A stretch of DNA of 64,000 bases from Candidatus Micrarchaeota archaeon (GTDB taxonomy: Archaea; Micrarchaeota; Micrarchaeia; Norongarragalinales; Norongarragalinaceae), in contig JABWCK010000001.1 in NCBI GenBank assembly GCA_013360305.1, forward strand, positions 17,209 to 81,208, read 5' to 3'. Both the position numbers and the translations under genes were made by a program. Under the pieces are notes generated by a model. It was not told where the DNA came from, did not search any database, and saw only the letters and a list, made by a program, of their open reading frames with translations. The first letter of the stretch is position 1, and each line of letters starts with the position of its first letter. Positions 4,110 to 40,263 of this stretch are shown here, one piece after another.

Positions 4110-7100
4110 ATGAATAAACACTCGCGTCTTGCACTGTTTGCTGTCGCATTGCTTAGCTCGAGTTTTGTCTTAGCGGCGTCTTCGCAGTATGAGTCGGCTG
4201 CGGTTTCTAGGATTGTTGGCGACAGCATTAGTGAGTTAAAACAGCAATTAAGCCAAGGGGACAAGGTTTTCCAGCACGGTACTTACTATACAGTCGAATA
4301 CCCGAGTCTTGGTTGTTTGATTACTAATAACGAGCCGGGCAACAAGGTTTGTCAGAATAAGGCGTTGTTCGAACAAAGCTTTCCAGGCAGTTTTTCTTAT
4401 GGCGATGGTAGTTTTAGTAGTTGGAGTTGGAATGAGTTAAAGAACGAGTTTGATGATTGGGCTAACAACGAGTTATTTTTATTAGAATCAAACGGGGTTT
4501 TAACTAGCAACGGAGTGGTTTTGGTTAACAGGGCAGGACAACAATTAACACCTAATGATGTAATAGTGAAAAATGCTTTTGCTAATAGAAAACCATTATT
4601 TGTTTCTGATGCGGAGTATGGGGGATTGTACTTGCCTAATACTTTAGCAGGAGACAAGTCGTTTATTGGCGCGTTGGGCCAGGACTCTGTTAGCATCGCT
4701 ACCACATCAGTAAAGAATCGAGAGTTTACGCTGGCTTTAATGTGTTATTTGACTAGGGACAAAAACGTTGGTGAAGCATTCAGGGAAGCTAGGAATAATT
4801 ATTACTGGGGTTCTGGAAAACCCAGCGGCTTGGCGTTAATGTCATACTTCTTGTATGGCACTACTAGCGTCAACTATTCTATGCCCGCCCAAATACTGGA
4901 AAGCGATTGGAAGAAACAATGCAGTACTTACTTTAATTCCACGGGCTTCTCAATAGTGACGGGCAGCGATGTTTATGGCGATGTGAGGGGAACAAAGGCA
5001 GAAATATTGTTTGATTCACCGGAACCTTTAGTTCAAGAAATTAGTTTAGACTTCAATAATTACCAAATTATTGATTTCAATAATTATTCATTGTTAACAG
5101 TTAACGGAACCGCATTAAGAAGCGAGTTTTTAGAATTGCCGTTACCGGTCAAGACGATTATTTCAAAGTTTCCAGAAAAAACAATCATAGTAAACATTAC
5201 AGTAACTTCCAAAACCAATCCAATCGATTTAGATTTGAATATTCCTTCATGGAACGGAACGCAATTAATAGATAGGCTTTGTTCTTCAAACGCTACTCAA
5301 GCAGGAATAAACTTTACTGGCGCAGTCATTGAAGACGATTCGTCCACGATAGTAGACGTAAACCCGGTGGAAGTAGTTAATTGTGAAGAAGGACGATTCA
5401 AGTTGTATAGAAGTTTAGTGTATAGGATTGAGTACTTGCCTTATTCGCCGGTTTTAATAAAAACACTAGACTACGCCAATCCAGTCTTGCCTAGCACTCA
5501 AGTTAATTTGACTGCGCAATTGGAACTAGTTGGTTTCTTGAGTAATTCTACAGGAGAATACGAACCAGACGAAAACACTGTCGCGCTGTACCACTTCAAC
5601 GAAGAAGGTACTGAGGAAATAGTAGATTCATCTGGAAACGGTTTTAATGGAATAGGTCAAAACTTGCTTTCTATAGAAGGTGTTTATGATAATGGCGTTT
5701 CATTTAGTGAACCAAATTCTTATGCTAACTTTACTCAAAACGAGTTGGGTTTTGAAACGAACTTCACAGTCGAAGCACGCATAAAAATAGGAAACATTCC
5801 TGAATCGTACGAAATGTTTATTTCAAGAGAAGGATGGGGTGGTAATTACTACTTAGGTATAACCCCAGAAGGAAAAGCATACACTCAAATAAACATCGAC
5901 CAAACAGGGTACGCATTAACTAGCGACAGGATTATTGCGGATGGAGAATGGCATCACGTTGCATTGACGTATGACGGAGTTGTTTTCAAGCAATGGATTG
6001 ATGGAGTTGAAGAAAAAAGCACTGAACTAACGGGCGTCGCATACTCGGATCCGAGACAAACGACTTGGTTTGGAGGAAAGCAAAGCGCGGATATTTACAA
6101 ATTCCATGGAGAATTAGATGAAGCAAGGTTCAGTAATACGGCAAGAACAGAATTTAACGCTAACAGTATTAGTGGCAGACTAGTTTTGAAGAATGGAAAC
6201 GAAATCGTTGCTCAAAAACAATACAACGGCGAAACTAGCCAAGTGTTGGAATTTGACTCAGATGATGAAGAAAAAATCACTAGCTATAAGTTGGAGTTCG
6301 TTGAAAAAAACGAAGCCAAAGCAACTAAGAGTTTTGATTTGGAAACATTGTTGTTGAAAACTTGGGTAGAAATTCCTGAACTAGTTGAAAACGAGAGGAC
6401 TACTACAACTTTGAAACTGGACAACAAGCTCGACCATTCGATTAATGCTAATATTACTTACTTTTTATACAACAAGACTAGCTACGTGGAAGAAAGAACA
6501 GTACAAAAAACCTTGATTCCAGGAGTTAATTCTGACGAACAAGAATTCACTGGATTAAAGCGAAGCAATATTGCTTACTCTCTTACGGCAGTAATTTACT
6601 ACGAAGGAAGGAACAAAACGGTTTCTGGAGTTATTACGACTAACCACGCTCCAGAATTAAGCGAAATACAAGACATTACGGTAAACGAGACTCAGGTCGT
6701 TTTAATCAATCCCCAAGCAACCGACTTGGAAGAAGACCCGATAACTTTTGAAATAAGCTCACCGGTTGGAAATGATGGAGTTTGGAATACTACCTACAAT
6801 GATTCCGGAACTTACTTCGTTAGAGTAAATGCTAGCGATGGATTATTGAAAGACTCTAGGCTAGTAAAATTAACGATACTAAACAAAAACCGCCCTCCAA
6901 TTCTTCAACTTATCGGCAGCAAGAACGTAAACGAGGAACAACTGCTTCAAATACAATTAAACGCGTCAGACGCGGACGGGGAAGAAATAACGTACTCGAC
7001 TAGCGCAAGCGAAGTATTACCTTCAAATTATTCCTTTAATTCGACTACGGGATTATTCAAGTGGACGCCTGCACAAGGAGAAGCTGGAACGTATTTTGTT

Positions 7101-29332: not shown

Positions 29333-32002
29333 ATGAATTTAAGCAAAGAAATTATTGACTTATTGAAAACCAAGGGCTTTGATGACTTTAGCGAAGCCCA
29401 GAAGCAAGCAATTCCCCTCATTAAAGACAAGCACGACGTATTGGTGATTGCTCCAACTGGTTCAGGCAAAACCGAAGCAGCCGTATTACCAATACTCGAC
29501 TCTATTCTAGAAAAGAAAAAGAAAGGAGAAGCAGTACTAGGCATTCAAGCACTATACATTACTCCTCTTCGTGCATTGAATCGAGACATGCTGCTTAGGT
29601 TGAACTTTTGGTGTGACTTACTAGGGATAACTATCGGAGTACGCCACGGAGATACTTCTTCTTCTGAACGAGCCAAGCAAAGAGATTTACCACCTAATTT
29701 TTTGATTACTACTCCCGAAACACTCGAGTCGTTGTTAATTGCTCCAAAATTGTCCGATTACTTGAAGAACGTTGAATTCGTTGTTGTTGATGAAGTGCAT
29801 GAGCTAGTCGACTCGAAGAGGGGCATTCAATTAAGCGTTGCTTTACAAAGACTAAAACAAAAAACTAGTTTTCAAACAATCGGTTTGTCTGCTACTGTGG
29901 GCGACGAAAAACTGGTTTCAAGATTCTTAAGCGATACCGCAAAAACCGTAAAAATTGGTTTGCCTAAAAAAATTCTTTTTTCCGTAGAATTGCCAACCAA
30001 GTCAAAAAAATCTTACTTAGGCTTAAGCAATGAAACTAATTCCAAACTAGGTAGAATAATCGACTTGATTTTAACTCACAATAGGTCTTTAATTTTTGTT
30101 AATACTCGATACACTGCAGAAAGTTTGGCGTCGTTGTTAATGCAGATTCCAGATGCTAAAGACTCGATTGCAGTGCATCATTCTTCACTATCCAAGGAAA
30201 GCCGTTTGGAAGTAGAGGAAGAATTCAAGAAAAACGCTTCAAAACTAAAAGCAATAATTTGCACTTCAAGCCTAGAATTAGGAATAGATGTCGGTGCGAT
30301 TGATTTAGTAATACAATACGTTTCTCCCCGTCAAGCTTCTCGTTTGCTTCAAAGAGTTGGTCGAAGCGGCCACAAACTAACCGGCGTGCCCAAGGGAATA
30401 ATTGTAGCTACTGACGCAATGGATGCGTTGGAAGCTGCTGCTTTAACCCACAAAGCAACTCTGGGTAGGTTGGAAGAATTATTGTACGAAGCAAAACCTT
30501 ATGACATTTTAATCCACCAACTAGCTGGTTTAGCTTTAGACTACGAGTCAATCACTAAAACTAAAGCGTTAGAAATAATTCAAAAAGCACTACCCTTCGT
30601 TAACTTGTCCATGGAAGAAGTAACTGCAGCATTAGAATTCATGCAGCAATTAAGAATAATCATCCTGACCCCGACCGGCTTCGTAAAAACCAGCCGCACT
30701 AAGTGGTATTATTACGAAAACGTTTCAATGATTCCCGACGACAAAAAGTATTTCGTTAAAAATTATTCCACTCGCAAAAACGTTGGAGTATTAGACGAAG
30801 CATTCGTTTCTGAATACTTACAAGAAGGAAAAACGTTTATTACTCGCGGAAAAGCATGGAAAGTCGTTTCAATTGAAGACAACGAGTTGATTGTAGAACA
30901 AGCTGAAGATTATACTGCCGCAGTTCCAGACTGGGTCGGTCAAGAAATACCTGTAGAAGAAGACACGGCACAACTAGTATTATCCTTCTTCCAAGGCAAA
31001 AACCAAGACGTATTGAAAGAATACTGCGACGAGCCGGCTTTGAAAAGCATTGAAAAATTATTGAAAAAACAAGCTGAATACTTCACTCCAGAAAAAGTAG
31101 TAATAGAATTCAACGGAGACGCCGCGTTGATGCACTCGTTTGCAGGAAATAAGGCAAACGAAGCACTCGCTAGAATATTCGGCGCGTTCTTTTCATCTGC
31201 ATTAGGTTCGGGAGTTAGAACCAACTCGAACACGTATGGGGTTTTCTTTGAATTTCCACAACCCGTTTCTTTAGAAAAACTATCAACGCTTATTGAAACT
31301 GCTTCAAAATCAAACGTGGAAGTCGTGCTAGAAAAAGCATTACTAGAAACCTCTTTGTACCGAAGGTTATTCGTTCACAATGCTAAAAGAATGGGCGCGA
31401 TAAAAAAAGACGCGGATTATTCCTCGATTAGCTTAAAACGTTTAGTCAAAGCATTTCAAGGCAGCATAGTTGAAGAAGAAGCCTTGAAGGAATTAAAACA
31501 CGAGTATTTTGATTTAGCTTCTGCTAAAAAGTGCCTGAGTAAAGAAAAACAATTTTTAGTAGTAAAAAACTGGTCGCCTTTAGCACAAGCGTTCTTTTCA
31601 TTCGGAGGATTTACTGAATTATTTGTTCCTGCTGACCCGACGAGTCAAGTTACTGAAGCATTCAAGAAAAGTTTAGAAGAAAAAACAGTTCGATTGAAGT
31701 GTTTGTACTGCAATAAAACTTTCGCTTATGCTTTGTCTTCAAGCGAACAACCTGCTTGTTTTTATTGCAATTCAAAAAGACTAACTCTAGAAAAAGCAAA
31801 AGGCAACGACGCTGAAAGAATAGGTTCTTTAGTTTCGTCTTATGGCAAGAACGCGTTGATTGCTTTAGAAACTTACGGCGTAGGCAGCGAAAACGCGGCG
31901 CGAGTCTTATCCCGGCTGCACAAGAATGAAGACGAGTTTTATGTGGATTTGCTTGAAGCACAAAAAACCTTCATGCGCACTAAAAAATACTGGCGGGTTT
32001 AA
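29333..32002 (+). CDS. Lhr-like DExH-box ATP-dependent helicase with C-terminal zinc ribbon
   Basis: Walker A APTGSGKTEAA; DEVH box (VVVDEVHELVD); motif III GLSATVGD; motif VI QRVGRSGH; C-terminal CLYCNK...CFYCNSK; 889 aa. Confidence 0.65.
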   Translation: MNLSKEIIDLLKTKGFDDFSEAQKQAIPLIKDKHDVLVIAPTGSGKTEAAVLPILDSILEKKKKGEAVLGIQALYITPLRALNRDMLLRLNFWCDLLGITIGVRHGDTSSSERAKQRDLPPNFLITTPETLESLLIAPKLSDYLKNVEFVVVDEVHELVDSKRGIQLSVALQRLKQKTSFQTIGLSATVGDEKLVSRFLSDTAKTVKIGLPKKILFSVELPTKSKKSYLGLSNETNSKLGRIIDLILTHNRSLIFVNTRYTAESLASLLMQIPDAKDSIAVHHSSLSKESRLEVEEEFKKNASKLKAIICTSSLELGIDVGAIDLVIQYVSPRQASRLLQRVGRSGHKLTGVPKGIIVATDAMDALEAAALTHKATLGRLEELLYEAKPYDILIHQLAGLALDYESITKTKALEIIQKALPFVNLSMEEVTAALEFMQQLRIIILTPTGFVKTSRTKWYYYENVSMIPDDKKYFVKNYSTRKNVGVLDEAFVSEYLQEGKTFITRGKAWKVVSIEDNELIVEQAEDYTAAVPDWVGQEIPVEEDTAQLVLSFFQGKNQDVLKEYCDEPALKSIEKLLKKQAEYFTPEKVVIEFNGDAALMHSFAGNKANEALARIFGAFFSSALGSGVRTNSNTYGVFFEFPQPVSLEKLSTLIETASKSNVEVVLEKALLETSLYRRLFVHNAKRMGAIKKDADYSSISLKRLVKAFQGSIVEEEALKELKHEYFDLASAKKCLSKEKQFLVVKNWSPLAQAFFSFGGFTELFVPADPTSQVTEAFKKSLEEKTVRLKCLYCNKTFAYALSSSEQPACFYCNSKRLTLEKAKGNDAERIGSLVSSYGKNALIALETYGVGSENAARVLSRLHKNEDEFYVDLLEAQKTFMRTKKYWRV

Positions 32003-32117
32003 ATTTTTTTCTTCAAAAAACCTTTTTCCGGAATAAACTCGATAGAAAACTCGCCTTTAGGTGGTTCTTCTTCAGAAAAATCCGGCTCAATTATTTTAAC
32101 TAGCTTGGGTTTTTTCA

Positions 32118-32591
32118 TTAAATTATCCTCGGCTTGTTGGGTTTTTTATCCTCGAAAACACCTTCAAGTGCGTTAGGGTTTTGTTCAAAAAATTTAGCCG
32201 CTTCCTTGTTCAACGGATCCCTCGGGTTGGGGTGTTTCAATAAGTGTTCCAATGCCTTAACTACCGAAACCACTGTTTGGTTCTCGCTCCAATCATTAAC
32301 TAATTGAATGCAAACAATTCCATCTTCTGCCCGAATATTTGGGTGAAATATTGGCGTAAGCCAGTAAACCATTATTCCTCCCGGGTAAGGATAACTGCGC
32401 AACAAGTCTATTTCTGCAGTGTGGGATTCTCTTTTCATCAAAGAATTATTTTGCTTATGCAACGCCGGCCCGTGCACGGTTACTACGTACTTGTTTTTTT
32501 CAGGATTAACTTCAAACTTGAATCCCGATGAAAGCATTTGATTATATTCGCTTTGCAAGCGGCGGTTGTATATTTCCGAAGGTAATTCCAT
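32118..32591 (-). CDS. Ubiquitin-conjugating enzyme E2 (UBC fold)
   Basis: NRRLQSEYNQML...YPYPGGIMVYWLTPIFHPNIRAEDGIVCIQLVNDWSENQTVVSVVKALEHLLKHPNPRDPLN: HPN motif, catalytic Cys, the Trp and the PNP.DPL motif of eukaryotic UBC domains; 157 aa. Confidence 0.85.
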   Translation of the reverse strand: MELPSEIYNRRLQSEYNQMLSSGFKFEVNPEKNKYVVTVHGPALHKQNNSLMKRESHTAEIDLLRSYPYPGGIMVYWLTPIFHPNIRAEDGIVCIQLVNDWSENQTVVSVVKALEHLLKHPNPRDPLNKEAAKFFEQNPNALEGVFEDKKPNKPRII

Positions 32592-32855
32592 TCAAAGCGC
32601 CTCTTTAACAGACTGAATTCCTTCCCTGCTCAACCCACGAATAGCTATGTAGTGATAATTAGCCTGCATTCCAATGCTTTCTGCCCGCGCGTTAGAAAAG
32701 TTTTGTTGAAAAAACGAATTCAAACTCTTTATCGTCGGTTCTGGAGATGGGTTGTTGATGGTGTTGAGTTTGATTATTATTTCAGTATCCGTGAATTCGG
32801 CCTTCAAAGAATAAGGTTTTAGTTTGGAAGCTAGTTTCTCGAAAAACTCGTTCAT
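32592..32855 (-). CDS. Hypothetical 87-aa protein translationally coupled to the E2 gene
   Basis: Stop abuts the E2 start codon (32592/32591); no Cys, no motif. Confidence 0.4.
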   Translation of the reverse strand: MNEFFEKLASKLKPYSLKAEFTDTEIIIKLNTINNPSPEPTIKSLNSFFQQNFSNARAESIGMQANYHYIAIRGLSREGIQSVKEAL

Positions 32856-32890
32856 GTCATTACTTACTCAAGAAAAGAATAAACGCTTTT

Positions 32891-33736
32891 CTACAACCAG
32901 CCTTTCTTCTTCATCCACAAGGCGGCGGTTAGTGTTACTATTATTTGGCCGACAATTACTGCCGGATACGCCCATTCGATTGCTAATTCGGGCATGTATA
33001 TGAAATTCATTCCAAAGTGTCCTGCTATGATGTTTGGAATCATTAAAACAATCGTTATTCCTGTCAATCTTTTTACTACGAGGTTCAATTCTTCAATTCT
33101 CTTGTTAGTTTCTTTAGTTTGTTTAGAGTCAATTTCCCACTGAATGTCCCTCAACTGGCTTAAATGGTTTCTACAACGGTCGAGTAATTGTTGCGCTTTA
33201 GTGTAAACCAAGTCGTAATCGTAAGCAACCAATCCCGTGTTTACTTGTTTTATTTTTCTTTCTTCCAAACTAGTCAACAATATTACGAAGTCTTCGATTC
33301 TGTTAGTGAGTTTTCTTAATTTTACCGTCGCGTCTTCTACGATTTCTGCTTTCAAACCTTTTTCTATTACGTCAATGTTTTCGTCTATTTGGTTGAATGT
33401 TTGCTGATAGTTTTTGACTATTGCTCTGAGCGTAAGCAAGCTCAAAACCGAACTCTCTCCGTATTGTTTTTGCATTGAAATGCGAAACATTTTGTAATCA
33501 TTGTCGTTGAATTGCTTGTTTTCCGAATAAAGCAAGGCGTTTTTCTCGCTGAGCAAAAGAATATTGTTTTTTGGTTCATTAGTTCCGTTATAGTCGCGCA
33601 CGCTGATGATTACGTAATCTTCGTAAGACTCTAAGAAGACGATGTTTAAACTAAGCAATTCATCCAAGTTTACGGCTACGCCTAGTTCAATAGCTCTTTT
33701 TTTAAAGTCGTCAAAATTAACGAAGGTTTCAATCAT
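32891..33736 (-). CDS. corA: CorA-family divalent-cation (Mg2+/Co2+) transporter
   Basis: C-terminal GMNFIYMPEL plus two TM helices (CorA GMN motif); 281 aa. Confidence 0.65.
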   Translation of the reverse strand: MIETFVNFDDFKKRAIELGVAVNLDELLSLNIVFLESYEDYVIISVRDYNGTNEPKNNILLLSEKNALLYSENKQFNDNDYKMFRISMQKQYGESSVLSLLTLRAIVKNYQQTFNQIDENIDVIEKGLKAEIVEDATVKLRKLTNRIEDFVILLTSLEERKIKQVNTGLVAYDYDLVYTKAQQLLDRCRNHLSQLRDIQWEIDSKQTKETNKRIEELNLVVKRLTGITIVLMIPNIIAGHFGMNFIYMPELAIEWAYPAVIVGQIIVTLTAALWMKKKGWL

Positions 33737-33765
33737 TGCTAAATGAATTAACTATTTAGTTGTTT

Positions 33766-34014
33766 TTAAGCTGAGCCCCCTGTTGGATCAGGGATTAATA
33801 GCAATTTAGCTCCTTCTGTCAGACCCGCATCTTGAATCGTGAGCGTCGGTTCGAGTATTTTGTTGTCTTCAGTGGATAAAATAAACCTGTCTTTTAACTG
33901 CAAGTTTTCCATTAATACTTCCAAAACACTTTGGATTGTGAATTCTGGCTCCACTGCCATAGTTATTTCTTTACCTGAAGTAGTTTGAATAATCACGATA
34001 TTAAACTCAGTCAT
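33766..34014 (-). CDS. Ubiquitin homologue (beta-grasp), precursor form with C-terminal GG followed by Ser-Ala
   Basis: IVIIQTTSGKEITMAVEPEFTIQSVLEVLMENLQLKDRFILSTEDNKILEPTLTIQDAGLTEGAKLLLI...TGGSA aligns position by position with eukaryotic ubiquitin ([34 protein letters not shown]...LVLRLRGG); 82 aa. Confidence 0.85.
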   Translation of the reverse strand: MTEFNIVIIQTTSGKEITMAVEPEFTIQSVLEVLMENLQLKDRFILSTEDNKILEPTLTIQDAGLTEGAKLLLIPDPTGGSA

Positions 34015-34076
34015 TTGCTTTTCACCACTTTTTATTTTCGGAAAGAGATTTTATATTAGTTTTGAGTGGTTCTTAT
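34015..34076. promoter_or_regulatory. Divergent AT-rich promoter region between the ubiquitin gene and the GG-protein/JAMM/RING operon
   Basis: TTTTTATTTT and TTTTATATTA TATA-like boxes in a 62-bp divergent spacer. Confidence 0.3.
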
Positions 34077-34724
34077 ATGCCTGCGGATTCAGATGATTTG
34101 AAAGAGTATAGTTTTGCTGAAAGCGATTTCGTTGCTAAGAAAAAAAAGCCAGAGCCCTTCGTCAGTGGAGCCGTTGAACGTTCCGTTGACGCTGAACCCA
34201 AACCAGATTTAAAACCCGCCGCCCCTAAAGAAATTACTCCCCAGCCAAAAATCGTTTCACCCACTAGACCTGCAGTTTTCGTTACCGGCATTGTACAAAA
34301 AGAAAAAACCCCAAAAGAAGAGCCAAAGACTGAAGACTCTCGAGTAATCGATTCATTACCTAAAGAAGAGCCTTTGAAAGTAACTGAAGAAGAAAAGCCA
34401 AAGAAATTATTTGAAGAAAAAAAACCAGAAGTAAAAAACGTCAAGCAACCCGAAAAAAAACCAGCCGTAAAGAAAACCGTTGACTGGAGCTTGTTTGATG
34501 AAGCTGTTTCTAAAGGAAAGACGCCCAACCAAGCCGTAGAACTAGCTACTGACAAAGACGTAGTAAAACAAATACGCCAAGACGCTTCAGCTGATATTTT
34601 ACCTGTCCAAAGAAGCGTCGACCGAGCATTAAACAAGGAAGCTCAAGCGCAGGAAGCCATTCGAAAATATGAAGAAAACAAAGCAAAGAAAAAGGGTTTT
34701 CTTCAAAAACTCTTTGGCGGTTAA
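34077..34724 (+). CDS. Lys/Glu/Pro-rich intrinsically disordered protein ending in Gly-Gly
   Basis: Start taken at ATG 34077 (ORF track uses TTG 34062); KPEPxxK/EEKP low-complexity; terminal ...KKKGFLQKLFGG-stop; the opposite-strand ORF (34073-34636) is an S/F/G antisense artefact. Confidence 0.45.
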   Translation: MPADSDDLKEYSFAESDFVAKKKKPEPFVSGAVERSVDAEPKPDLKPAAPKEITPQPKIVSPTRPAVFVTGIVQKEKTPKEEPKTEDSRVIDSLPKEEPLKVTEEEKPKKLFEEKKPEVKNVKQPEKKPAVKKTVDWSLFDEAVSKGKTPNQAVELATDKDVVKQIRQDASADILPVQRSVDRALNKEAQAQEAIRKYEENKAKKKGFLQKLFGG

Positions 34725-34726
34725 CC

Positions 34727-35158
34727 TTGTACGAAATATACTTCGAACCAACTCCATTCAAGCAAGCATTAAGCCATTTTAAACGCGAAGCAGGAAAAAA
34801 CCTTGAAGCACTAGGCTTATTGCTCGGAGAAGTGCGAATTCACAACGGCAGGAAGTACGTGGTAGTAAAGGAATACGTTACTGCAGAAAACCACGCGTCA
34901 AGCATTTCGGTTCGATTTACTCAAAACGCATTCAAAGAACTGTCTCCAAAACTAAGCGACAAAATAATCGTTGGATGGATTCATTCACATCCTTCGTATG
35001 GTTGTTTCTTGTCCAGCACTGACGTGCGCACACAACAAGCCTTCTTCAACGAAGACTATAACTTTGCATTCGTAATAGATCCCGTTCAAAATGATTACCG
35101 CGCGTTTAGAGTAAAAAACGGACGGTATTATGAAGTTTCATTCGCAGTAATTGATTAA
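34727..35158 (+). CDS. JAMM/MPN+ metalloprotease (Rpn11/JAB1-like deubiquitinase/Ub-precursor peptidase)
   Basis: EALGLLLGE (conserved Glu) and GWIHSHPSYGCFLSSTD (HxHx7Sx2D zinc motif); only a TTG start is available in-frame; 143 aa. Confidence 0.8.
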   Translation: MYEIYFEPTPFKQALSHFKREAGKNLEALGLLLGEVRIHNGRKYVVVKEYVTAENHASSISVRFTQNAFKELSPKLSDKIIVGWIHSHPSYGCFLSSTDVRTQQAFFNEDYNFAFVIDPVQNDYRAFRVKNGRYYEVSFAVID

Positions 35159-35863
35159 ATGAAGAAAACAAAACGCAAGGAAAAAATCAAGGGCTTCGAC
35201 AAAAAATTGTTCGAAGTAGTTTCTAGCGGAGTCACTAACAAGAAAATCATTCTCGAATCCCTAGTCGTAGACGAAGGAGAATTCGACAAACGCGTTTCTT
35301 CACTGATTAAAAAGAAATTATTCGTCTACTCCGGCGAAGACTTGAAACTAGGCATTAACGCATTCGACTACTTTAAGGAAAAACCCAAGAAGACAAAACC
35401 AAAAGAAGAATCCTTAATCGAAAAATTATCTATTCCAGAAAACCCTATCGTCGTACAAACTCCTCCAAAAATCGAGCCTGAAACGAAAGAAGAACCAAGA
35501 ATAGACTTAGATTCACTACTACGTTCGGGCGCTCCAAAAGAAAACGTAATGCAAAAAACCCTGGAAGACAAGGTACTCGTTGTTTCAAGTCCACAACAAT
35601 TATCTGCCGCTGTTGGGAAGCCATTAATGACTGAAGGAGAAGAAGCCTGCGAATTATGCAAAGCAAACTTCAAGTTAAACGTCAAAAACACTTCCGACTC
35701 CAAATACGGCCACTGCTTCTGTGGGGCTGCGTATCATAAGGATTGTTATTCTGCATTACTTAATGGAACAACTCGCTGCGTTCGCTGCGGAAGAAAACTA
35801 GAACTAGTATTAGACAAACAAACAGAACAAGCACTCAAAGGACTACGCGGAGTATTCGATTAA
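35159..35863 (+). CDS. C4HC3 RING/PHD-like zinc-finger protein (candidate E3), N-terminal wH-like region
   Basis: C-terminus CELC-x18-CFC-x4-H-x2-C-x10-CVRC = C-x2-C...C-x-C-x4-H-x2-C...C-x2-C treble-clef pattern; ATG follows the JAMM stop directly (TAAATG); 234 aa. Confidence 0.5.
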   Translation: MKKTKRKEKIKGFDKKLFEVVSSGVTNKKIILESLVVDEGEFDKRVSSLIKKKLFVYSGEDLKLGINAFDYFKEKPKKTKPKEESLIEKLSIPENPIVVQTPPKIEPETKEEPRIDLDSLLRSGAPKENVMQKTLEDKVLVVSSPQQLSAAVGKPLMTEGEEACELCKANFKLNVKNTSDSKYGHCFCGAAYHKDCYSALLNGTTRCVRCGRKLELVLDKQTEQALKGLRGVFD

Positions 35864-36594
35864 TGCAGCGGACAGTCTCTTCTTTGAGAAACCTCGTAAA
35901 TCACTACTTCATTCTTTAACCCATTAAAGAAAGCGTATTTTCCAACTAACGCAGGCAATCCGTGAACTAGCTTGATGAATTCGTTTACTTGCATTGAAGC
36001 AATAACGCTAGTCGTCGTCGCTAAAGCAGGCATTTTAGAACTCATAAAGTCCAAAACTTCTCCCACGCAAGAATATTTTTTCCACAAAATCTTGTAATCG
36101 CTCTTAGTCAAAGAACACTCTAAGCACGCAGTCTTGTCAACTACTTGAATTTTACCGTTAAACGCGTTAGTTCCACCGTCAATTAAAATTATTTTCCCGA
36201 AACACTTAGCATTCAAATGAATCCTGGCAGCTAAGTTGTCAAGACAAGAAAAACAATAATCAAAACCCGCAAAGAATTCCTCACTCAATTCTTCCAACCG
36301 CTTGTCAACTGCAGTAATCTCGCTGGAATTGTTTAGTTTTTCCGCCTTCTCCTTCAAAACAAAACACTTCTTCTTCCCTACATCTTCAAGGGAAAAAAAC
36401 ACGCACCTATTCAAATTAACTTCCGCAATCTCGTCATAATCAACAATAGTAATCTTTCCTACTCCTAGTTGTACTAGTAACTTGACTGCTTCATTGCCTA
36501 ACGCTCCCGCTCCCAAGACTAAAACGTTCTTTGAACTAATTTTTTCCTGGCTCCAACCTTGAATTCTTTTTTGTCGATCGAAAACGTCAGTCAC
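35860..36594 (-). CDS. Ubiquitin-activating E1-like enzyme (ThiF/MoeB/UBA family)
   Basis: RQKRIQGWSQEKISSKNVLVLGAGALGNEAVKLLVQLGVGKITIVDYDEIAEVNLNRCVFF (E1 adenylation-domain signature); candidate catalytic/zinc Cys (KTACLEC); 244 aa; convergently overlaps the RING gene stop. Confidence 0.75.
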   Translation of the reverse strand: MTDVFDRQKRIQGWSQEKISSKNVLVLGAGALGNEAVKLLVQLGVGKITIVDYDEIAEVNLNRCVFFSLEDVGKKKCFVLKEKAEKLNNSSEITAVDKRLEELSEEFFAGFDYCFSCLDNLAARIHLNAKCFGKIILIDGGTNAFNGKIQVVDKTACLECSLTKSDYKILWKKYSCVGEVLDFMSSKMPALATTTSVIASMQVNEFIKLVHGLPALVGKYAFFNGLKNEVVIYEVSQRRDCPLH

Positions 36595-36630
36595 AATAAT
36601 CTTTTACTATCTCAAAGCATAAAACTAGTT

Positions 36631-37353
36631 ATGCCGCTTATTGTTTGCTCTAGTCAAAACGAGCTAGGCCTCAACGCTTTCAATTTGCTACAAGAAAAAA
36701 AAGCAAACTGCTTGCTGTTAGAAGAAAACGCTTTGTACTCGAAAAAACAATTCGAAACCGATTTGGTAGTGTATTGTTATACTCACAAGAGTTCCTCGAA
36801 CGAGCCTTGTTTTACTACCCACAGCCAAGGCAATTTTAGTGAAGCAAAACTAGGCGGGGAAGAAAAAACCCTAGCAAACACGTCAGGCACTGCCGTGAAA
36901 CTAGCTTACACCGAATTACTCAAACAAACCAACTTGCCTGTTTTTTTGGAAGCTACTCACCACGGACCAACCTCGCTTCATTCTCCCTCATTATTTATAG
37001 AGTTAGGTGCTACTCCGAAGCAATGGACTGACTTAGAATTACTAAATAACTTAACTAGTGCTTGCATTTCCGTAGCTGAAAAATTCAAGCCTACGCAAAA
37101 AGCGGTTTTAGGCTTTGGAGGCACTCATTACTGCAACGCCTTCCTGGAACTAGCAAAAAAAGAAAGTTTTTCGTTTATTTGCTCAAAACACTACCTGGAT
37201 TTTATTGATGCAGAAATGATTGAACAAATGGTTTCCAAAACAATCGAGCCAGTAACAAAAGCATTCGTCGACAAAAAAGGCTGTTCGGGCGAGCAAAGGC
37301 GAAAAATAATCTCGCTACTTGAAGAAAAAGCAATCGAATGCGAACTAGTTTAG
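36631..37353 (+). CDS. Archaeal-type D-aminoacyl-tRNA deacylase (DtdA)-like protein
   Basis: MPLIVCSSQNELGLNAFNLL N-terminus and LEATHHGPTS motif resemble the DtdA family; start taken at the internal Met because the longer ORF would overlap the E1 N-terminus. Confidence 0.4.
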   Translation: MPLIVCSSQNELGLNAFNLLQEKKANCLLLEENALYSKKQFETDLVVYCYTHKSSSNEPCFTTHSQGNFSEAKLGGEEKTLANTSGTAVKLAYTELLKQTNLPVFLEATHHGPTSLHSPSLFIELGATPKQWTDLELLNNLTSACISVAEKFKPTQKAVLGFGGTHYCNAFLELAKKESFSFICSKHYLDFIDAEMIEQMVSKTIEPVTKAFVDKKGCSGEQRRKIISLLEEKAIECELV

Positions 37354-38501
37354 TACTCGAATAGTTTTTTCTGGCTAAACAAGTTGCTCTTAGCTAAGTA
37401 TTTTTCCAACGGGTTCTTCAACCTCGTTCTCAATTCATCCTTTAATTCCTTAATTGAAGAAAAACGCATTGGCTGGTTTTCAAACGCGTGCTTTACGTTC
37501 TCACGCACTTCCCAAACCCCGACCGGAATGCTGTATTCCTTACTAATTTCTCGAATCACGCACACTCTAGCCTGCCGTCCTTGTTTTCGCAAAGCGTCGC
37601 AGACAGAAAATCGCGAAGCATAAAACCCGCCACCCTCGCTTTCAGCGTACTTAGTACGGCCCTCAAACGGTTCATGCTCGTAAGCGAAGTCGTGACCCTC
37701 CCACGCCTCGAATTGCTCGAATTCATATCTGCCCGGCAAGAGAATTACTTCGAAATGGTTAAACAAGTAAGTATTCGAATACAATAAAATCGAGTTATTC
37801 TCTGGAAACTCCTTGATTTCTTTCAGTAAATAGTCTGCAACCAAGTTGTCGACTGCAGTAATACTCCACTTGGTAGGCACCATTTTCTTCTTATTGCCTA
37901 AAATCCCTGCAGAAAACACTTTTTGAAGATAATAATAATCAAACCTGCCGACTACTTCCGGCAACGCCTCTCGAACAGTCAAGTTTTCTTGAGAAAGAGA
38001 ATCAATCTTCCTCGGAATAACCGGGTTTCCTGCTAAATCCATTTTCTCTAATTCCGCCGAAGGACCCATCGGCTGGCTCTTGTTAAAGAAAGAAACGTTG
38101 AAACTAGGCAGTTTTTTGAAAGAAACCTCTAAATCAATGGTTTTTTCACTCATTACAGAGTCCTTTAAATCCCCCAAAAACCTTTCCCGAGAACCAAAAA
38201 CACTAGTTTTCTTCATTCCCCTCGCTAAATTAGCTCTATATTCAATAATTTTATCAAAAGTCAAGCCATACCACTGGTCAGGCGAGTCCAAAAGACGAGC
38301 ATCCACTTCAGAATCCAGTCCCACAAGGGGGCCAACAAACACGTTAGGATAACCGTATTCTCCAACGAATAAATTAGGCGGAGTAGGGCCGAAAATATTT
38401 TTACCAATCTTCGGTATTTTTACATCAATTTTTTTCTTCTTAACCCACTCTAAAGGCGTTTCTCCAGACCAATCACTATTCATTTCATCAAAATAATTCA
38501 A
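37350..38501 (-). CDS. Nre-family (NreA-like) putative DNA-repair protein
   Basis: FGPTPPNLFVGEYGYPNVFVGPLVGLD resembles the conserved N-terminal motif of archaeal Nre proteins; 383 aa. Confidence 0.45.
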   Translation of the reverse strand: MNYFDEMNSDWSGETPLEWVKKKKIDVKIPKIGKNIFGPTPPNLFVGEYGYPNVFVGPLVGLDSEVDARLLDSPDQWYGLTFDKIIEYRANLARGMKKTSVFGSRERFLGDLKDSVMSEKTIDLEVSFKKLPSFNVSFFNKSQPMGPSAELEKMDLAGNPVIPRKIDSLSQENLTVREALPEVVGRFDYYYLQKVFSAGILGNKKKMVPTKWSITAVDNLVADYLLKEIKEFPENNSILLYSNTYLFNHFEVILLPGRYEFEQFEAWEGHDFAYEHEPFEGRTKYAESEGGGFYASRFSVCDALRKQGRQARVCVIREISKEYSIPVGVWEVRENVKHAFENQPMRFSSIKELKDELRTRLKNPLEKYLAKSNLFSQKKLFEY

Positions 38502-38520
38502 GCAAAAAATTTAAACCAAC

Positions 38521-38645
38521 GCTTTTACTAGTCTTTTATACGTCTTTTATGAGTCACTTACAAGTCATTTACTAGTCGCGTACAAGTCTTTTACAACTTG
38601 TTTCATGGATGAAGAAAGTCTTTTAAATGTCTTTTACGTGAGCAT
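38521..38645. repeat. Array of about seven short direct repeats (core GTCTTTTA[C/T]) in the divergent intergenic region upstream of the AAA+/wH ATPase
   Basis: gcttttactagtc / tagtcttttatac / acgtcttttatgagtc / caagtcatttactagtc / caagtcttttacaac / aagtcttttaaatgtc / atgtcttttacgtg at 12-20 nt spacing. Confidence 0.5.
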
Positions 38646-38675
38646 TAAGCCTTGTATTATTAAAGGGTAATAATT

Positions 38676-39842
38676 ATGGATTCTGTTTTCGAAGCAAAAG
38701 ATAAATTGCTGCATCATTTAAAATGGACTGAAAATCCATTTGTCAAAGACTTAAGAATAGAGGATGAAGAATCATTCTTGAAGTACTATTACCAGTTGGA
38801 AGCAAAAGAAATATTGAAAAAACTCGCCTTCGACGCTAAAGCATGCATGTTGATTGGTCCAAAAGGCGTCGGAAAAACCAGCGCAATGTATTTCGTGCGC
38901 TATTCTTTGCCTCAGGAAGAGTTTGTTTCAATAGTTTTCAAGCAGCCTCCTGAATCAATTGACTCTCTAGCAAGAGAAACCGGACTGTTTCCTTCAAACG
39001 AGGGCGGTTTAGTAAGCAATTTAATGAGTGTTTTCGGCAAAAAACCAGAAAAAAAGCCTATATCGCGCTCTGAACTAGTTTCGAAACTAAAATCAGTCGG
39101 CAAAAAACTAGTTTTCTTCATGGATGAAGCTCACTTAGAGAAAAACCACGACATGTACATGGAATTCAAGTACTTGCTCGATGAAGTCCCAAACTTGAGG
39201 CTAGTAATATCCGCCCTCGGAAAAGAAGGCTTTCCAGACTCGTTAATTCAATTAATCGGCGAAGGAAACATTTTCACTAGAACTGGTTTTACGAGGGAAG
39301 AAATGCTTGAAATAATCAAGCATAGAATAAACGCAGTAGGCGGCAACGACGTAAAACCGTTTTCTAAAGTTTTTTTGGATAAAGTATTAAGCGGACAAAA
39401 CTTGCTTTCTCCTCGATACGTTTTCGACGAGTTAAATTCATTCCTAGCAAGCATGGCTTTAGGCGATGACTCGTACAAGAAATACGAATACGCAGATGAT
39501 CCAATAATTCAATCAGCAATCCAGTACTCGAGTGAACAAAAAATTTCTAGAGCAAACGCTAATTGGTGGCCAATGCTATCGCCTTCACAACAAAAAATAA
39601 CCGAATTACTAGTTCGAGATGGAGAATTAACGCTTTCTGAAATAATGGAAAAGACTGAATTAAGTCAAAACACTGCCTTCAACGCGTTATACCAATTGCG
39701 CGGAGGCGACGAAGCAGAAAAAAAACGCAAACCAAGCGTGCCGTTTCCCTTGATTAAGGTAAAATCAATCGGTTCAGGCGCTAGGAAAAAAAACGTGTAT
39801 TCGTTGAATCCAAAAATCAGAAACTTGTTTACAATGCATTAA
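38676..39842 (+). CDS. AAA+ ATPase with C-terminal winged helix (Orc1/Cdc6-like or Arch_ATPase-type)
   Basis: Walker A GPKGVGKTS, Walker B VFFMDEAH, C-terminal wH (LSPSQQKITELLVRDGELTLSEIMEKTELSQNTAFNALYQL); 388 aa. Confidence 0.55.
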   Translation: MDSVFEAKDKLLHHLKWTENPFVKDLRIEDEESFLKYYYQLEAKEILKKLAFDAKACMLIGPKGVGKTSAMYFVRYSLPQEEFVSIVFKQPPESIDSLARETGLFPSNEGGLVSNLMSVFGKKPEKKPISRSELVSKLKSVGKKLVFFMDEAHLEKNHDMYMEFKYLLDEVPNLRLVISALGKEGFPDSLIQLIGEGNIFTRTGFTREEMLEIIKHRINAVGGNDVKPFSKVFLDKVLSGQNLLSPRYVFDELNSFLASMALGDDSYKKYEYADDPIIQSAIQYSSEQKISRANANWWPMLSPSQQKITELLVRDGELTLSEIMEKTELSQNTAFNALYQLRGGDEAEKKRKPSVPFPLIKVKSIGSGARKKNVYSLNPKIRNLFTMH

Positions 39843-39855
39843 CGGGGTGGAAGTT

Positions 39856-39990
39856 ATGAGTGAAGAAAAATCATTAAAACAAATCTTGGAAGAATTAAGT
39901 GGAAAAAACGTGGCTTACAAATTCGGCGTTTATGGTGGAGACGCAGTAATTCAAGTCGACGGATTCATGAAGACTTTAAGTTTCAGATAG
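39856..39990 (+). CDS. Possible small protein (44 aa), not in the ORF track
   Basis: MSEEKSLKQILEELSGKNVAYKFGVYGGDAVIQVDGFMKTLSFR, preceded by a GGGGTGG SD-like element 6-8 nt upstream. Confidence 0.25.
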   Translation: MSEEKSLKQILEELSGKNVAYKFGVYGGDAVIQVDGFMKTLSFR

Positions 39991-40059
39991 TTTGCAGCAA
40001 GTTTTTTTGTGGGAAAAAACTTTTTGCTAAAAAAAATATTTTTGTGGGTGGGTATTCAA

Positions 40060-40263
40060 ATGAAGTGTTTTTCGTTATTCGAAATGGACGACTTAATTCG
40101 CTCTGCAGGAGCTGAACGAGTCGACGAGCGAGCGAGTAAAAAATTATCCGACTTATTGGAGGACAAGGGTTCAGCAATACTAGAACGCGCTAGAATACTA
40201 GCAGACCACGCCGGCCGCACTAAAATAACTAAAGAAGACGTCTACCTAGCAGTAAACGTATGA
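40060..40263 (+). CDS. Archaeal histone (HMf-type histone fold)
   Basis: LIRSAGAERVDERASKKLSDLLEDKGSAILERARILADHAGRTKITKEDVYLAVN aligns with HMfB (GRIIKNAGAERVSDDAREALAKVLEE...AKHAGRKTIKAEDIELAV); start chosen at Met 40060 to give ~68 aa. Confidence 0.7.
   Translation: MKCFSLFEMDDLIRSAGAERVDERASKKLSDLLEDKGSAILERARILADHAGRTKITKEDVYLAVNV

Follow-up and report, generated by a model that had tools for sequence, protein, structure and literature searches.

A winged-helix protein with a divergent RING-like domain as candidate E3 of a ubiquitin gene cluster in Micrarchaeota

Which protein, if any, acts as the ubiquitin ligase (E3) of the ubiquitin gene clusters carried by Micrarchaeota? We addressed this question in a 64,000-nucleotide stretch of DNA from a Candidatus Micrarchaeota archaeon (assembly GCA_013360305.1, contig JABWCK010000001.1, positions 17,209 to 81,208 of the forward strand), hereafter called the window, in whose own numbering coordinates are given. 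The window encodes a ubiquitin-like protein (Ub), a ThiF-type activating enzyme (E1), a UBC-fold conjugating enzyme (E2) and a JAMM metalloprotease, and between the JAMM and E1 genes lies a gene for a 234-amino-acid protein with a cysteine-rich C-terminus. An earlier note, made from the DNA letters alone, had proposed this protein as the E3, reading its C-terminus as a zinc finger intermediate between the RINGv (RING-CH) and PHD types. Because a winged-helix protein with a divergent RING domain sits here in a cluster with Ub, E1, E2 and a deubiquitinase, an E3 role is the most likely one, and we consider it probable on present sequence evidence.

The open reading frame (ORF) proposed earlier is present on the plus strand (35159..35863, 234 amino acids), and the whole gene encodes a protein composed of a winged helix, a linker and a RING-like domain. 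Its product is identical to the GenBank entry 'hypothetical protein HUU53_00320, Candidatus Micrarchaeota archaeon'. The domain on which the question turns was delimited by ligand conservation, profiles and alignments:

35648..35788, plus strand: divergent C4HC3 RING domain, residues 164-210

Read from the DNA, the C-terminus is C164-E-L-C167-x18-C186-F-C188-GAAY-H193-KD-C196-x10-C207-VR-C210, and the pattern C-x2-C-x18-C-x-C-x4-H-x2-C-x10-C-x2-C given in the note is matched exactly by the translated sequence. The family comprises about 90 representatives, all from Micrarchaeota and 156-422 amino acids long, which share the pattern C-x2-C-x16-19-C-x-C-x4-H-x2-C-x9-11-C-x2-C. In these representatives, whose overall identity is 33-63%, C164, C167, C188, H193, C196 and C210 are invariant, while C186 and C207 are near-invariant, with a single Cys-to-His exception at the former and a Trp in one sequence at the latter. 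With eight positions invariant or nearly so, the ligand pattern is beyond chance. The C-x-C pair formed by ligands 3 and 4 becomes C-x2-C or H-C-H-H-C in some members, the spacer being 2 in homolog P0092. His185 was considered as a ninth ligand or an alternative ligand 3; it is invariant among close relatives yet replaced in the wider family, and since seven representatives have Tyr or Asn there, it was rejected as a ligand.

A further 35 full-length homologues were found at 28-63% identity, none of which carries a Pfam annotation. An exhaustive search with the zinc-domain profile in 1.84 billion cluster representatives yielded 72 proteins below 1e-10 and no further match, from which we conclude that the family is closed; a word-indexed search with E up to 10 added only family fragments. 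The 185,579 species-representative genomes yielded 53 loci, all labelled Micrarchaeota, Micrarchaeia, Norongarragalinales or plain 'archaeon'.

The affinity of the zinc domain was assessed by scanning 62 family domains one by one against Pfam. All but one matched Prok-RING_1 (PF14446) below threshold, the best at E 9.9e-6 and 25.9 bits against a gathering score of 29.1, with the window protein at 12.7 bits. The same proportion, 61/62, matched zf-RING_2, likewise below threshold (best E 9.4e-5, 23.0 vs 27.3 bits, model positions 2-43 of 44). Other sub-threshold matches were to C1_1 and RH_dom (43/62 each), the Vps41 RING (23/62) and the RING-like domain of Nse1 (PF08746, 18/62), and minorities were to ADK_lid (22/62), PHDvar_NSD (17/62), Zn_ribbon_5 (12/62) and DZR (6/62). 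PHD itself (PF00628) matched 4/62 domains (best E 0.0029), and RINGv fell outside the 25 most-matched families. The comparison with RING, RINGv and PHD profiles that the earlier note had suggested thus came out for zf-RING_2, always below threshold, and not for PHD or RINGv.

The family profile was also compared with all PDB sequences, giving 19 matches with E <10, of which 18 are RING E3 ligases and one is a PHD finger. The ligases include gp78/AMFR (the best, E 0.0029), Pirh2, RNF24, NOT4, RNF4, RLIM, EL5 and RNF126. The alignments with gp78 and Pirh2 run gap-free from ligand 3 to past ligand 8 along C-G-[H->A]-x-[FY]-H-x-x-C-x10-C-x-x-C. When a divergent member was aligned with the C4C4 RING of NOT4, the eight ligands paired one-to-one at single-sequence E values of 0.13-0.2, which are not significant alone; the same member also aligns with RNF24 (C-P-C-K-H-A-F-H-R-K-C). 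The predicted secondary structure is RING-like: ligands 1 and 2 lie in a hairpin, a helix begins at H193/C196, ligands 7 and 8 form a knuckle, and a C-terminal helix follows.

The sub-threshold RING profiles, the PDB matches, the NOT4 register and the second-half spacing of the Caldiarchaeum (C.) subterraneum small RING finger protein (srfp) agree with one another, so the zinc domain is very probably a cross-brace domain of the RING superfamily. We assign it, as far as sequence allows, to a new lineage-specific RING family with a NOT4/srfp-like ligand register. Because the ligands align one-to-one with NOT4 and RING-H2 structures, we infer a cross-brace pairing in which C164, C167, H193 and C196 would form the first zinc site and C186, C188, C207 and C210 the second. 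The eight-ligand C4HC3 pattern of the original description stands, while its RINGv/PHD label gives way to a NOT4-like, RING-H2-derived C4HC3 RING with the x4/x10 spacing of srfp, which fits better.

The JAMM, E1, E2 and Ub neighbours named in the note were confirmed by Pfam and, for Ub, by a GGSA end:

34727..35158, plus strand: JAMM/Rpn11-like metalloprotease (JAB, E 5e-13), directly 5' of the 234-amino-acid gene
35860..36594, minus strand: ThiF-type E1 of 244 amino acids (ThiF, E 2e-50), convergent with the 234-amino-acid gene
33766..34014, minus strand: ubiquitin-like protein ending ...PDPTGG-SA, recognised by Pfam, with ubiquitin itself as best PDB match
32118..32591, minus strand: canonical UBC-fold E2 with an HPN motif and catalytic Cys94 (UQ_con, E 4e-19)

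Compared with the PDB, the JAMM protein is closest to eukaryotic Rpn11 (E 1e-12), followed by CSN5 and then C. subterraneum Rpn11, and the E2 is closest to eukaryotic Rad6/UBE2C-type enzymes (E 4e-12). Both gene junctions described earlier can be read in the DNA. In TAAATG at 35156-35161, the JAMM stop TAA (35156-35158) abuts the ATG at 35159, and at the other end a TTAA is common to the stop of the 234-amino-acid gene (35861-35863) and that of the minus-strand E1 gene (35860-35862), the two ORFs ending at 35863 and 35860.

This arrangement is conserved. In a synteny set of 56 loci, with partner genes located by tblastn, JAMM lies directly upstream in 54, and E1 is nearby in 51, Ub in 49 and E2 in 44; most missing partners fall in short loci cut at contig ends. 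The distance from the JAMM stop to the start of the 234-amino-acid-type gene is mostly -8 to +12 nucleotides, a 4-nucleotide overlap of the ATGA type being commonest. In most loci the E1 gene follows immediately downstream in convergent orientation, the two stops overlapping by 4 nucleotides in 11 of them. As the RING gene is translationally coupled to the JAMM gene, these data suggest that the two products form a paired writer/eraser module. At the level of a candidate, then, the E3 proposal is supported by the RING profile matches, all sub-threshold, and by linkage to Ub, E2, JAMM and E1 in 44-54 of the 56 loci.

The residues that could meet an E2 were inspected in the family alignment. The position before ligand 2 is Leu, Ile or Val in 90/90 members, that four residues after ligand 6 is Leu, Ile, Val or Met in 85/90, and that following ligand 7 is Val, Ile, Ala, Leu or Pro in 90/90, so that hydrophobic side chains occupy all three putative E2-contact positions (L166, L200 and V208 in the window protein). 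A core Phe four residues after ligand 2 is present in 90/90 members. Basic residues cluster near ligand 8, with Arg or Lys two positions after it in 87/90 and Arg just before it in 74/90. On the other side of the presumed interface, the cognate E2 (32118..32591) keeps, besides its HPN motif and Cys94, the loop-4 pair P68-Y69, whose counterpart in the C. subterraneum E2, PY67/68, is essential in that cascade (PMC5654768).

Several results weigh against an E3 of RING type. The linchpin position, directly after ligand 8, is Gly in 87/90 members, and the Trp of the RING-H2 central helix is replaced by an aliphatic residue. Loop 7 of the cognate E2 reads W-S/A-E, vs W-S-P-A in eukaryotes. None of the 62 scanned domains reaches a Pfam gathering score, and an NCBIfam scan gave no match for the 234-amino-acid protein. 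The 1.84 billion representatives contain no sequence bridge to other RING families and no non-micrarchaeal relative at E <=0.001. Structure modelling, a check proposed in the note, left the zinc domain at low confidence: AlphaFold2 gave it predicted local distance difference test scores (pLDDT) of 44-76 when the whole protein was modelled and of 58 on average when the domain was modelled by itself, and Foldseek found no significant match for the domain model (template-modelling score about 0.2). Finally, the archaeal clusters with the closest E2 outside Micrarchaeota (loci L057 and L059, described below) have no gene in the slot equivalent to that of the 234-amino-acid gene.

Outside the zinc finger, the layout was derived from the family alignment and AlphaFold2, which divide the protein into six parts including the RING domain. 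The other five are:

35159..35194, plus strand: basic N-terminal tail, residues 1-12 (MKKTKRKEKIKG), from alignment and charge analysis
35186..35374, plus strand: winged helix-turn-helix, residues 10-72, from AlphaFold2, Foldseek and weak Pfam matches
35375..35647, plus strand: linker rich in Lys, Glu and Pro, residues 73-163, from pLDDT, alignment gaps and composition
35501..35536, plus strand: short helical motif within the linker, residues 115-126 (I-D-L-D-S-L-L-R-S-G-A-P), from alignment and an AlphaFold2 helix at 117-122
35801..35860, plus strand: amphipathic C-terminal helix, residues 215-234, from alignment and AlphaFold2

Across the family the N-terminal tail has a median length of 31 amino acids and a median net charge of +7. 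The winged helix consists of three helices followed by a beta-hairpin wing, modelled with a pLDDT of about 95 over residues 10-72. Its model matches helix-turn-helix domains of the MexR/MarR/ZitR/DtxR type over about 60 residues (Foldseek probability 0.99-1.0, root-mean-square deviation 1.2-2.5 A). F13, D14, G24, R45 and L49 are conserved, and the core is electrically neutral on average in the charge analysis. Homologs match Pfam HTH_24, MarR, TrmB and AsnC weakly, one of ten exceeding the HTH_24 cut-off (24.2 vs 21.9 bits), while the window protein itself has no Pfam helix-turn-helix match at E <=0.1 in this region. The linker is predicted to be disordered, with pLDDT <50 over most of the segment, and ranges from 57 to 170 amino acids in the family. 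A possible winged helix followed by a Lys/Glu-rich linker, as the note had it, is thus what the models and the composition display.

Within the linker lies a conserved DLxxLLxxGAP motif whose D116 never varies and whose L117 is kept by at least 90% of members; this predicted helix is a candidate docking motif for a partner. The C-terminal helix follows the consensus LDKxSEEAxKxIKDVF[DE], F233 being kept in at least 90% of members and invariant in a 36-sequence alignment, and could possibly pack against the RING or serve in dimerisation. We also considered whether the terminal V-F-D is an HbYX-like proteasome-docking tail, and rejected this because the distance from the conserved Phe to the C-terminus varies from 0 to 4 residues among the sequences listed.

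Taken together, these features lead us to favour a model in which the 234-amino-acid protein would be both E3-like ligase and adaptor of a compact cassette of eukaryotic type, made of Ub, a ThiF-type E1, a UBC E2 and an Rpn11-like JAMM protein. The C-terminal divergent RING would bind two zinc ions in a cross-brace and offer L166, L200 and V208 to helix 1 and the loop-4 pair Pro68-Tyr69 of the cognate E2, a contact that would promote discharge of Ub from the charged E2 onto lysines. The basic tail and the winged helix would choose the substrate or the site of action, be it a protein or a protein bound to nucleic acid, and the flexible linker of about 90 residues, with its DLxxLLxxGAP helix, would join them to the RING. 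Translational coupling to the JAMM gene would tie conjugation to deconjugation. We judge this model as a whole to have a better than even chance of being right.

The partner genes show further features. The E1 is a bare adenylation domain of the ThiF/MoeB type with C-x2-C motifs and has neither the separate catalytic-Cys domain nor the C-terminal Ub-fold domain of eukaryotic and Caldiarchaeum E1s; as annotated, its 5' end overlaps by 36 nucleotides that of a divergent ORF for a D-aminoacyl-tRNA deacylase (DTD; 36559..37353, plus strand). The Ub-like proteins of loci L001-L055 stop exactly at ...PDPTGG in about 40/48 loci, a few others carrying 1-8 additional residues and the window copy two (SA). 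Since most Ub genes already end at GG, the JAMM protein would be mainly deconjugating and not precursor-processing. The extreme C-terminal tail of the E2, K-K-P-R-[IV]-V, is conserved across Micrarchaeota, and it may be regulatory, since the C. subterraneum enzyme ubiquitylates itself at a C-terminal Lys.

The nearest non-micrarchaeal relatives of the E2 (34-36% identity) lie in archaeal JAB-ThiF-E2(-Ub) clusters at L057 (6447..8862) and L059, with a Ras/Arf-like small GTPase gene near them. A RING partner was sought in these clusters. L057 has none; at L059 a convergent gene (4119..5342, minus strand) encodes a 407-amino-acid multi-pass membrane protein whose tail, C-x2-C-x11-C-x-C-x4-C-x2-C-x10-C-x2-C, shows the same x4/x10 register. 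It is possibly a membrane RING E3, and with an hhalign probability of only 50% it was not accepted as a RING partner.

Three further genes lie within the ubiquitin cluster of the window:

34062..34724, plus strand: 220-amino-acid protein rich in Lys, Glu and Pro, ending ...LFGG, the first gene of the transcription unit that continues with JAMM and the 234-amino-acid gene, from the ORF list and cross-locus comparison
32891..33736, minus strand: CorA Mg2+ transporter, between Ub and E2
32592..32855, minus strand: 87-amino-acid ORF without a family match, between Ub and E2

In most loci the slot of the 220-amino-acid ORF is filled by an ORF of 82-440 amino acids, the orthologues being conserved only in roughly their last 45 residues (..DI.P...A..IWEEK.KKK..F..L..fG[FL]x). 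The protein may be a partner or substrate of the ubiquitin system. That it is a second modifier, as its FGG end could suggest, was rejected: only the window copy and its closest relative have the GG end, and the remaining orthologues finish in ...G[FL][KRE]. CorA was matched in one other locus (L036), about 5 kb from Ub and outside the Ub-E2 interval, and the 87-amino-acid ORF had no match in any other locus of the set.

The wider gene order is conserved as well, in the sequence Lhr, E2, Ub, the variable ORF (X), JAMM, the 234-amino-acid-type gene, E1, DTD, Nre, an AAA+ ATPase with a winged helix, histone and DHH. In the window it occupies 29333..40263, and L001, L002, L008, L012, L015 and others show the same succession of Lhr helicase, ubiquitin system, D-aminoacyl-tRNA deacylase, Nre, ATPase, histone and DHH phosphoesterase. 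Two of its members are:

38676..39842: 388-amino-acid P-loop ATPase with a C-terminal winged helix-turn-helix (weak AAA_22 match)
40009..40263: archaeal histone

Given this conserved order, the cassette is a core chromosomal locus and not a mobile or defence island. Anti-phage systems with Ub-like proteins (Bil, CBASS Cap2/Cap3, 6A-MBL) were considered and rejected in view of the housekeeping synteny and the lack of PADLOC or NCBIfam support: scans with both gave no match for the 234-amino-acid protein, the Ub-like protein or the E2, and generic ThiF and JAB similarity only for the E1 and the JAMM protein. The neighbourhood is flavoured by DNA maintenance, which may or may not reflect a functional link to the ubiquitin cassette.

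In the alternative that survives best, the 234-amino-acid protein has no catalytic role and serves JAMM as adaptor or regulator, or else is a ubiquitin receptor; its cross-brace zinc domain and linker motif would recruit the deubiquitinase to targets and activate no E2. Its tightest linkage is indeed to JAMM (54/56 loci), the stop of one gene overlapping or abutting the start of the next; the residue expected at the canonical linchpin position is absent; and a mainly deconjugating JAMM protein, acting where most Ub genes end at GG, could need a targeting subunit. We nonetheless regard this reading as unlikely, for the profile matches go overwhelmingly to E2-binding RING E3s, the three hydrophobic E2-contact positions are conserved, and the cluster offers no other E3 candidate. 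When the 64-kb window was searched with a generic RING regular expression (six frames, ORF segments of at least 50 amino acids), the only RING-like pattern found was that of the 234-amino-acid protein.

The N-terminal domain raises a second alternative, a winged-helix transcription factor for the ubiquitin cluster or for other genes, in which the zinc domain would serve dimerisation or sensing. The match to DNA-binding folds of the MarR/DtxR/AsnC/TrmB type, the strongly basic tail and a short divergent promoter region that adjoins (34015-34061) are in keeping with it. The winged-helix core, however, is uncharged on average, and the putative recognition helix has a single conserved basic residue, R45; a RING-like domain and a disordered linker of 57-170 residues would be unusual in an archaeal regulator, and the RING-specific profile matches and strict co-occurrence with E2, E1 and Ub would go unexplained. 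A regulator of this kind is quite unlikely.

That the zinc domain is a PHD-, C1- or FYVE-like reader of histone or protein tails or of lipids, instead of an E2-binding RING, is highly unlikely. The C4HC3 order with x4 before the His is that of PHD fingers, the sub-threshold C1_1, RH_dom and PHDvar_NSD matches point the same way, and the conserved gene order around the cassette includes a histone gene. Yet PHD proper is rarely matched, and the aromatic residue expected two positions before ligand 7 in a PHD finger is present in 2/90 members, with Gly there in 51/90. A helix is predicted directly after ligands 5 and 6, as in RINGs; the spacer of 10 between ligands 6 and 7 and the C-G-x-x-[FY]-H-x-x-C core resemble those of RING-H2; and C1 domains are without the final C-x2-C pair. 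Two independent, sequential zinc ribbons or knuckles without a cross-brace, working apart from E2 binding, are also highly unlikely: the absence of a confident AlphaFold fold and the minority matches to Zn_ribbon_5, DZR and ADK_lid would suit them, but the ribbon matches cover only parts of the domain while alignments over all eight ligands go to RING domains, and the H-x2-C pair of ligands 5 and 6 lies on a predicted helix, as is typical of treble-clef cross-brace sites.

An E3 role for the 234-amino-acid protein, which we prefer, would have several consequences. To our knowledge, Caldiarchaeum (Aigarchaeota) is the only source from which a complete ubiquitylation cassette of eukaryotic type, RING E3 included, has been studied biochemically. 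Discussion of such cassettes as precursors of the eukaryotic system centres on the Asgard and TACK archaea. In Micrarchaeota, which belong to the DPANN archaea and have reduced genomes, a cassette of the same kind is a conserved core locus. A search of the literature on Micrarchaeota or DPANN with ubiquitin found no description of such a system, the species list of a 2017 survey, given in a figure, lying outside that search; and none of Pfam, NCBIfam and PADLOC recognises the 234-amino-acid protein at its cut-offs. If the protein is an E3, the locus would hold a minimal ubiquitin system of five genes that includes a targeting domain and is open to reconstitution, and would bear on how RING E3s gained substrate specificity and on what ubiquitin does in an obligate episymbiont.

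A bolder extension has the RING anchored on DNA, or on proteins bound to it, through the winged helix and basic tail, which would make the protein a chromatin- or repair-directed E3. We give this idea little chance at present. Were it true, this would be the first RING ligase of a prokaryote to carry its own targeting domain, in a DPANN archaeon, operating in the conserved neighbourhood of Lhr, ubiquitin system, Nre, Orc/Cdc6-like ATPase, histone and DHH; and modular E3s joining a targeting domain to a RING, together with genome-maintenance ubiquitin signalling, would have arisen in archaea outside Asgard and TACK.

We compared the micrarchaeal protein with RING and RING-like systems already known. 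Prok-RING_1, a Pfam family defined by gene association with Ub, E1, E2 and JAB in prokaryotes, is the family most consistently matched, and its Ub/E1/E2/JAB context also holds at the micrarchaeal locus. Many of its members carry transmembrane helices. The micrarchaeal family has a winged helix instead, and its matches cover the model from its start to roughly two thirds of its length. To RING-H2 domains (zf-RING_2; gp78/AMFR, RCHY1/Pirh2, RNF24) the likeness extends over nearly the full model and includes the Phe four residues after ligand 2 and the hydrophobic residue four after ligand 6. In the micrarchaeal domain, however, the ligand-4 His is Ala, its role being taken by a Cys two residues before ligand 3; the E2-contact Trp and Pro are aliphatic, the linchpin position is Gly, and scores stay below threshold. 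The C4C4 RING of NOT4/CNOT4 (1E4U, 1UR6, 5AIE), which has been solved in complex with an E2 (UbcH5B/Ubc4), shares the register C-x2-C ... C-x-C-x4-[C/H]-x2-C ... C-x2-C and a Leu before ligand 2. It differs in ligand 5, which is Cys and not His, in its first loop (13 vs 16-19 residues) and in its unrelated domain context.

Other likenesses are more distant. Nse1 of SMC5/6 (zf-RING-like, PF08746) also combines a winged helix with a C-terminal C4HC3 RING variant, and the MAGE-G1/NSE1 complex (5hvq_C) is among the Foldseek matches of the winged helix. Nse1, however, lacks a long linker and carries its winged helices in tandem, and there is no significant sequence relationship, so this likeness is architectural and not evidence of homology; the resemblance of the micrarchaeal protein to cullin-Rbx is one of analogy only. 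PHD fingers share the C4HC3 order and the x4 before His and differ in the aromatic residue before ligand 7. RINGv domains share the C4HC3 order and a C-x-C pair. In their textbook consensus about 7 residues separate ligand 4 from the His, whereas the spacer is 4 in all micrarchaeal members.

The closest functional precedent is srfp. In C. subterraneum the operon runs Ub-E2-E1-srfp with Rpn11 divergent, and the srfp motif is C-X2-C-X11-C-X2-C-X4-H-X2-C-X10-C-X2-C (PMC3082918). srfp (CSUB_C1477) is a demonstrated E3 that requires I30, W58 and R69 (Hennell James et al., PMC5654768), and its ligands 3 and 4 are shifted by two residues relative to RING-H2, an extra Cys being involved (PMC5654768). 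Our comparison, made by published motif and description, found both proteins in an archaeal cluster of Ub, E2, E1 and Rpn11-type genes, with the same C4HC3 order, identical second-half spacers (X4, X2, X10, X2), ligands 3 and 4 displaced in the same way with an extra Cys involved, and an aliphatic residue before ligand 2 (I30 in srfp, L166 here). The differences lie in the first loop (16-19 residues in the micrarchaeal family vs 11), in the spacer between ligands 3 and 4 (1 vs 2), in W58, which is aliphatic in the micrarchaeal family, and in the linchpin R69, replaced by Gly with a basic residue one position later. The earlier note had placed the two genes in equivalent positions; this holds for the cluster and not for the slot, since srfp follows E1, with Rpn11 divergent, and the micrarchaeal gene follows JAMM.

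The NOT4/srfp-type register C-x(1-2)-C-x4-H/C would, on this reading, be an ancient RING variant. The cassette belongs to the known kind of archaeal eukaryote-like Ub operon, in which the 234-amino-acid protein would, by inference from the analogy, work like Caldiarchaeum srfp. What is new is the RING component itself: srfp is a small single-domain protein, a bare RING finger placed after E1, whereas the micrarchaeal protein is modular, joining winged helix, linker motif, RING and C-terminal helix in 234 amino acids, and occupies the slot behind JAMM.

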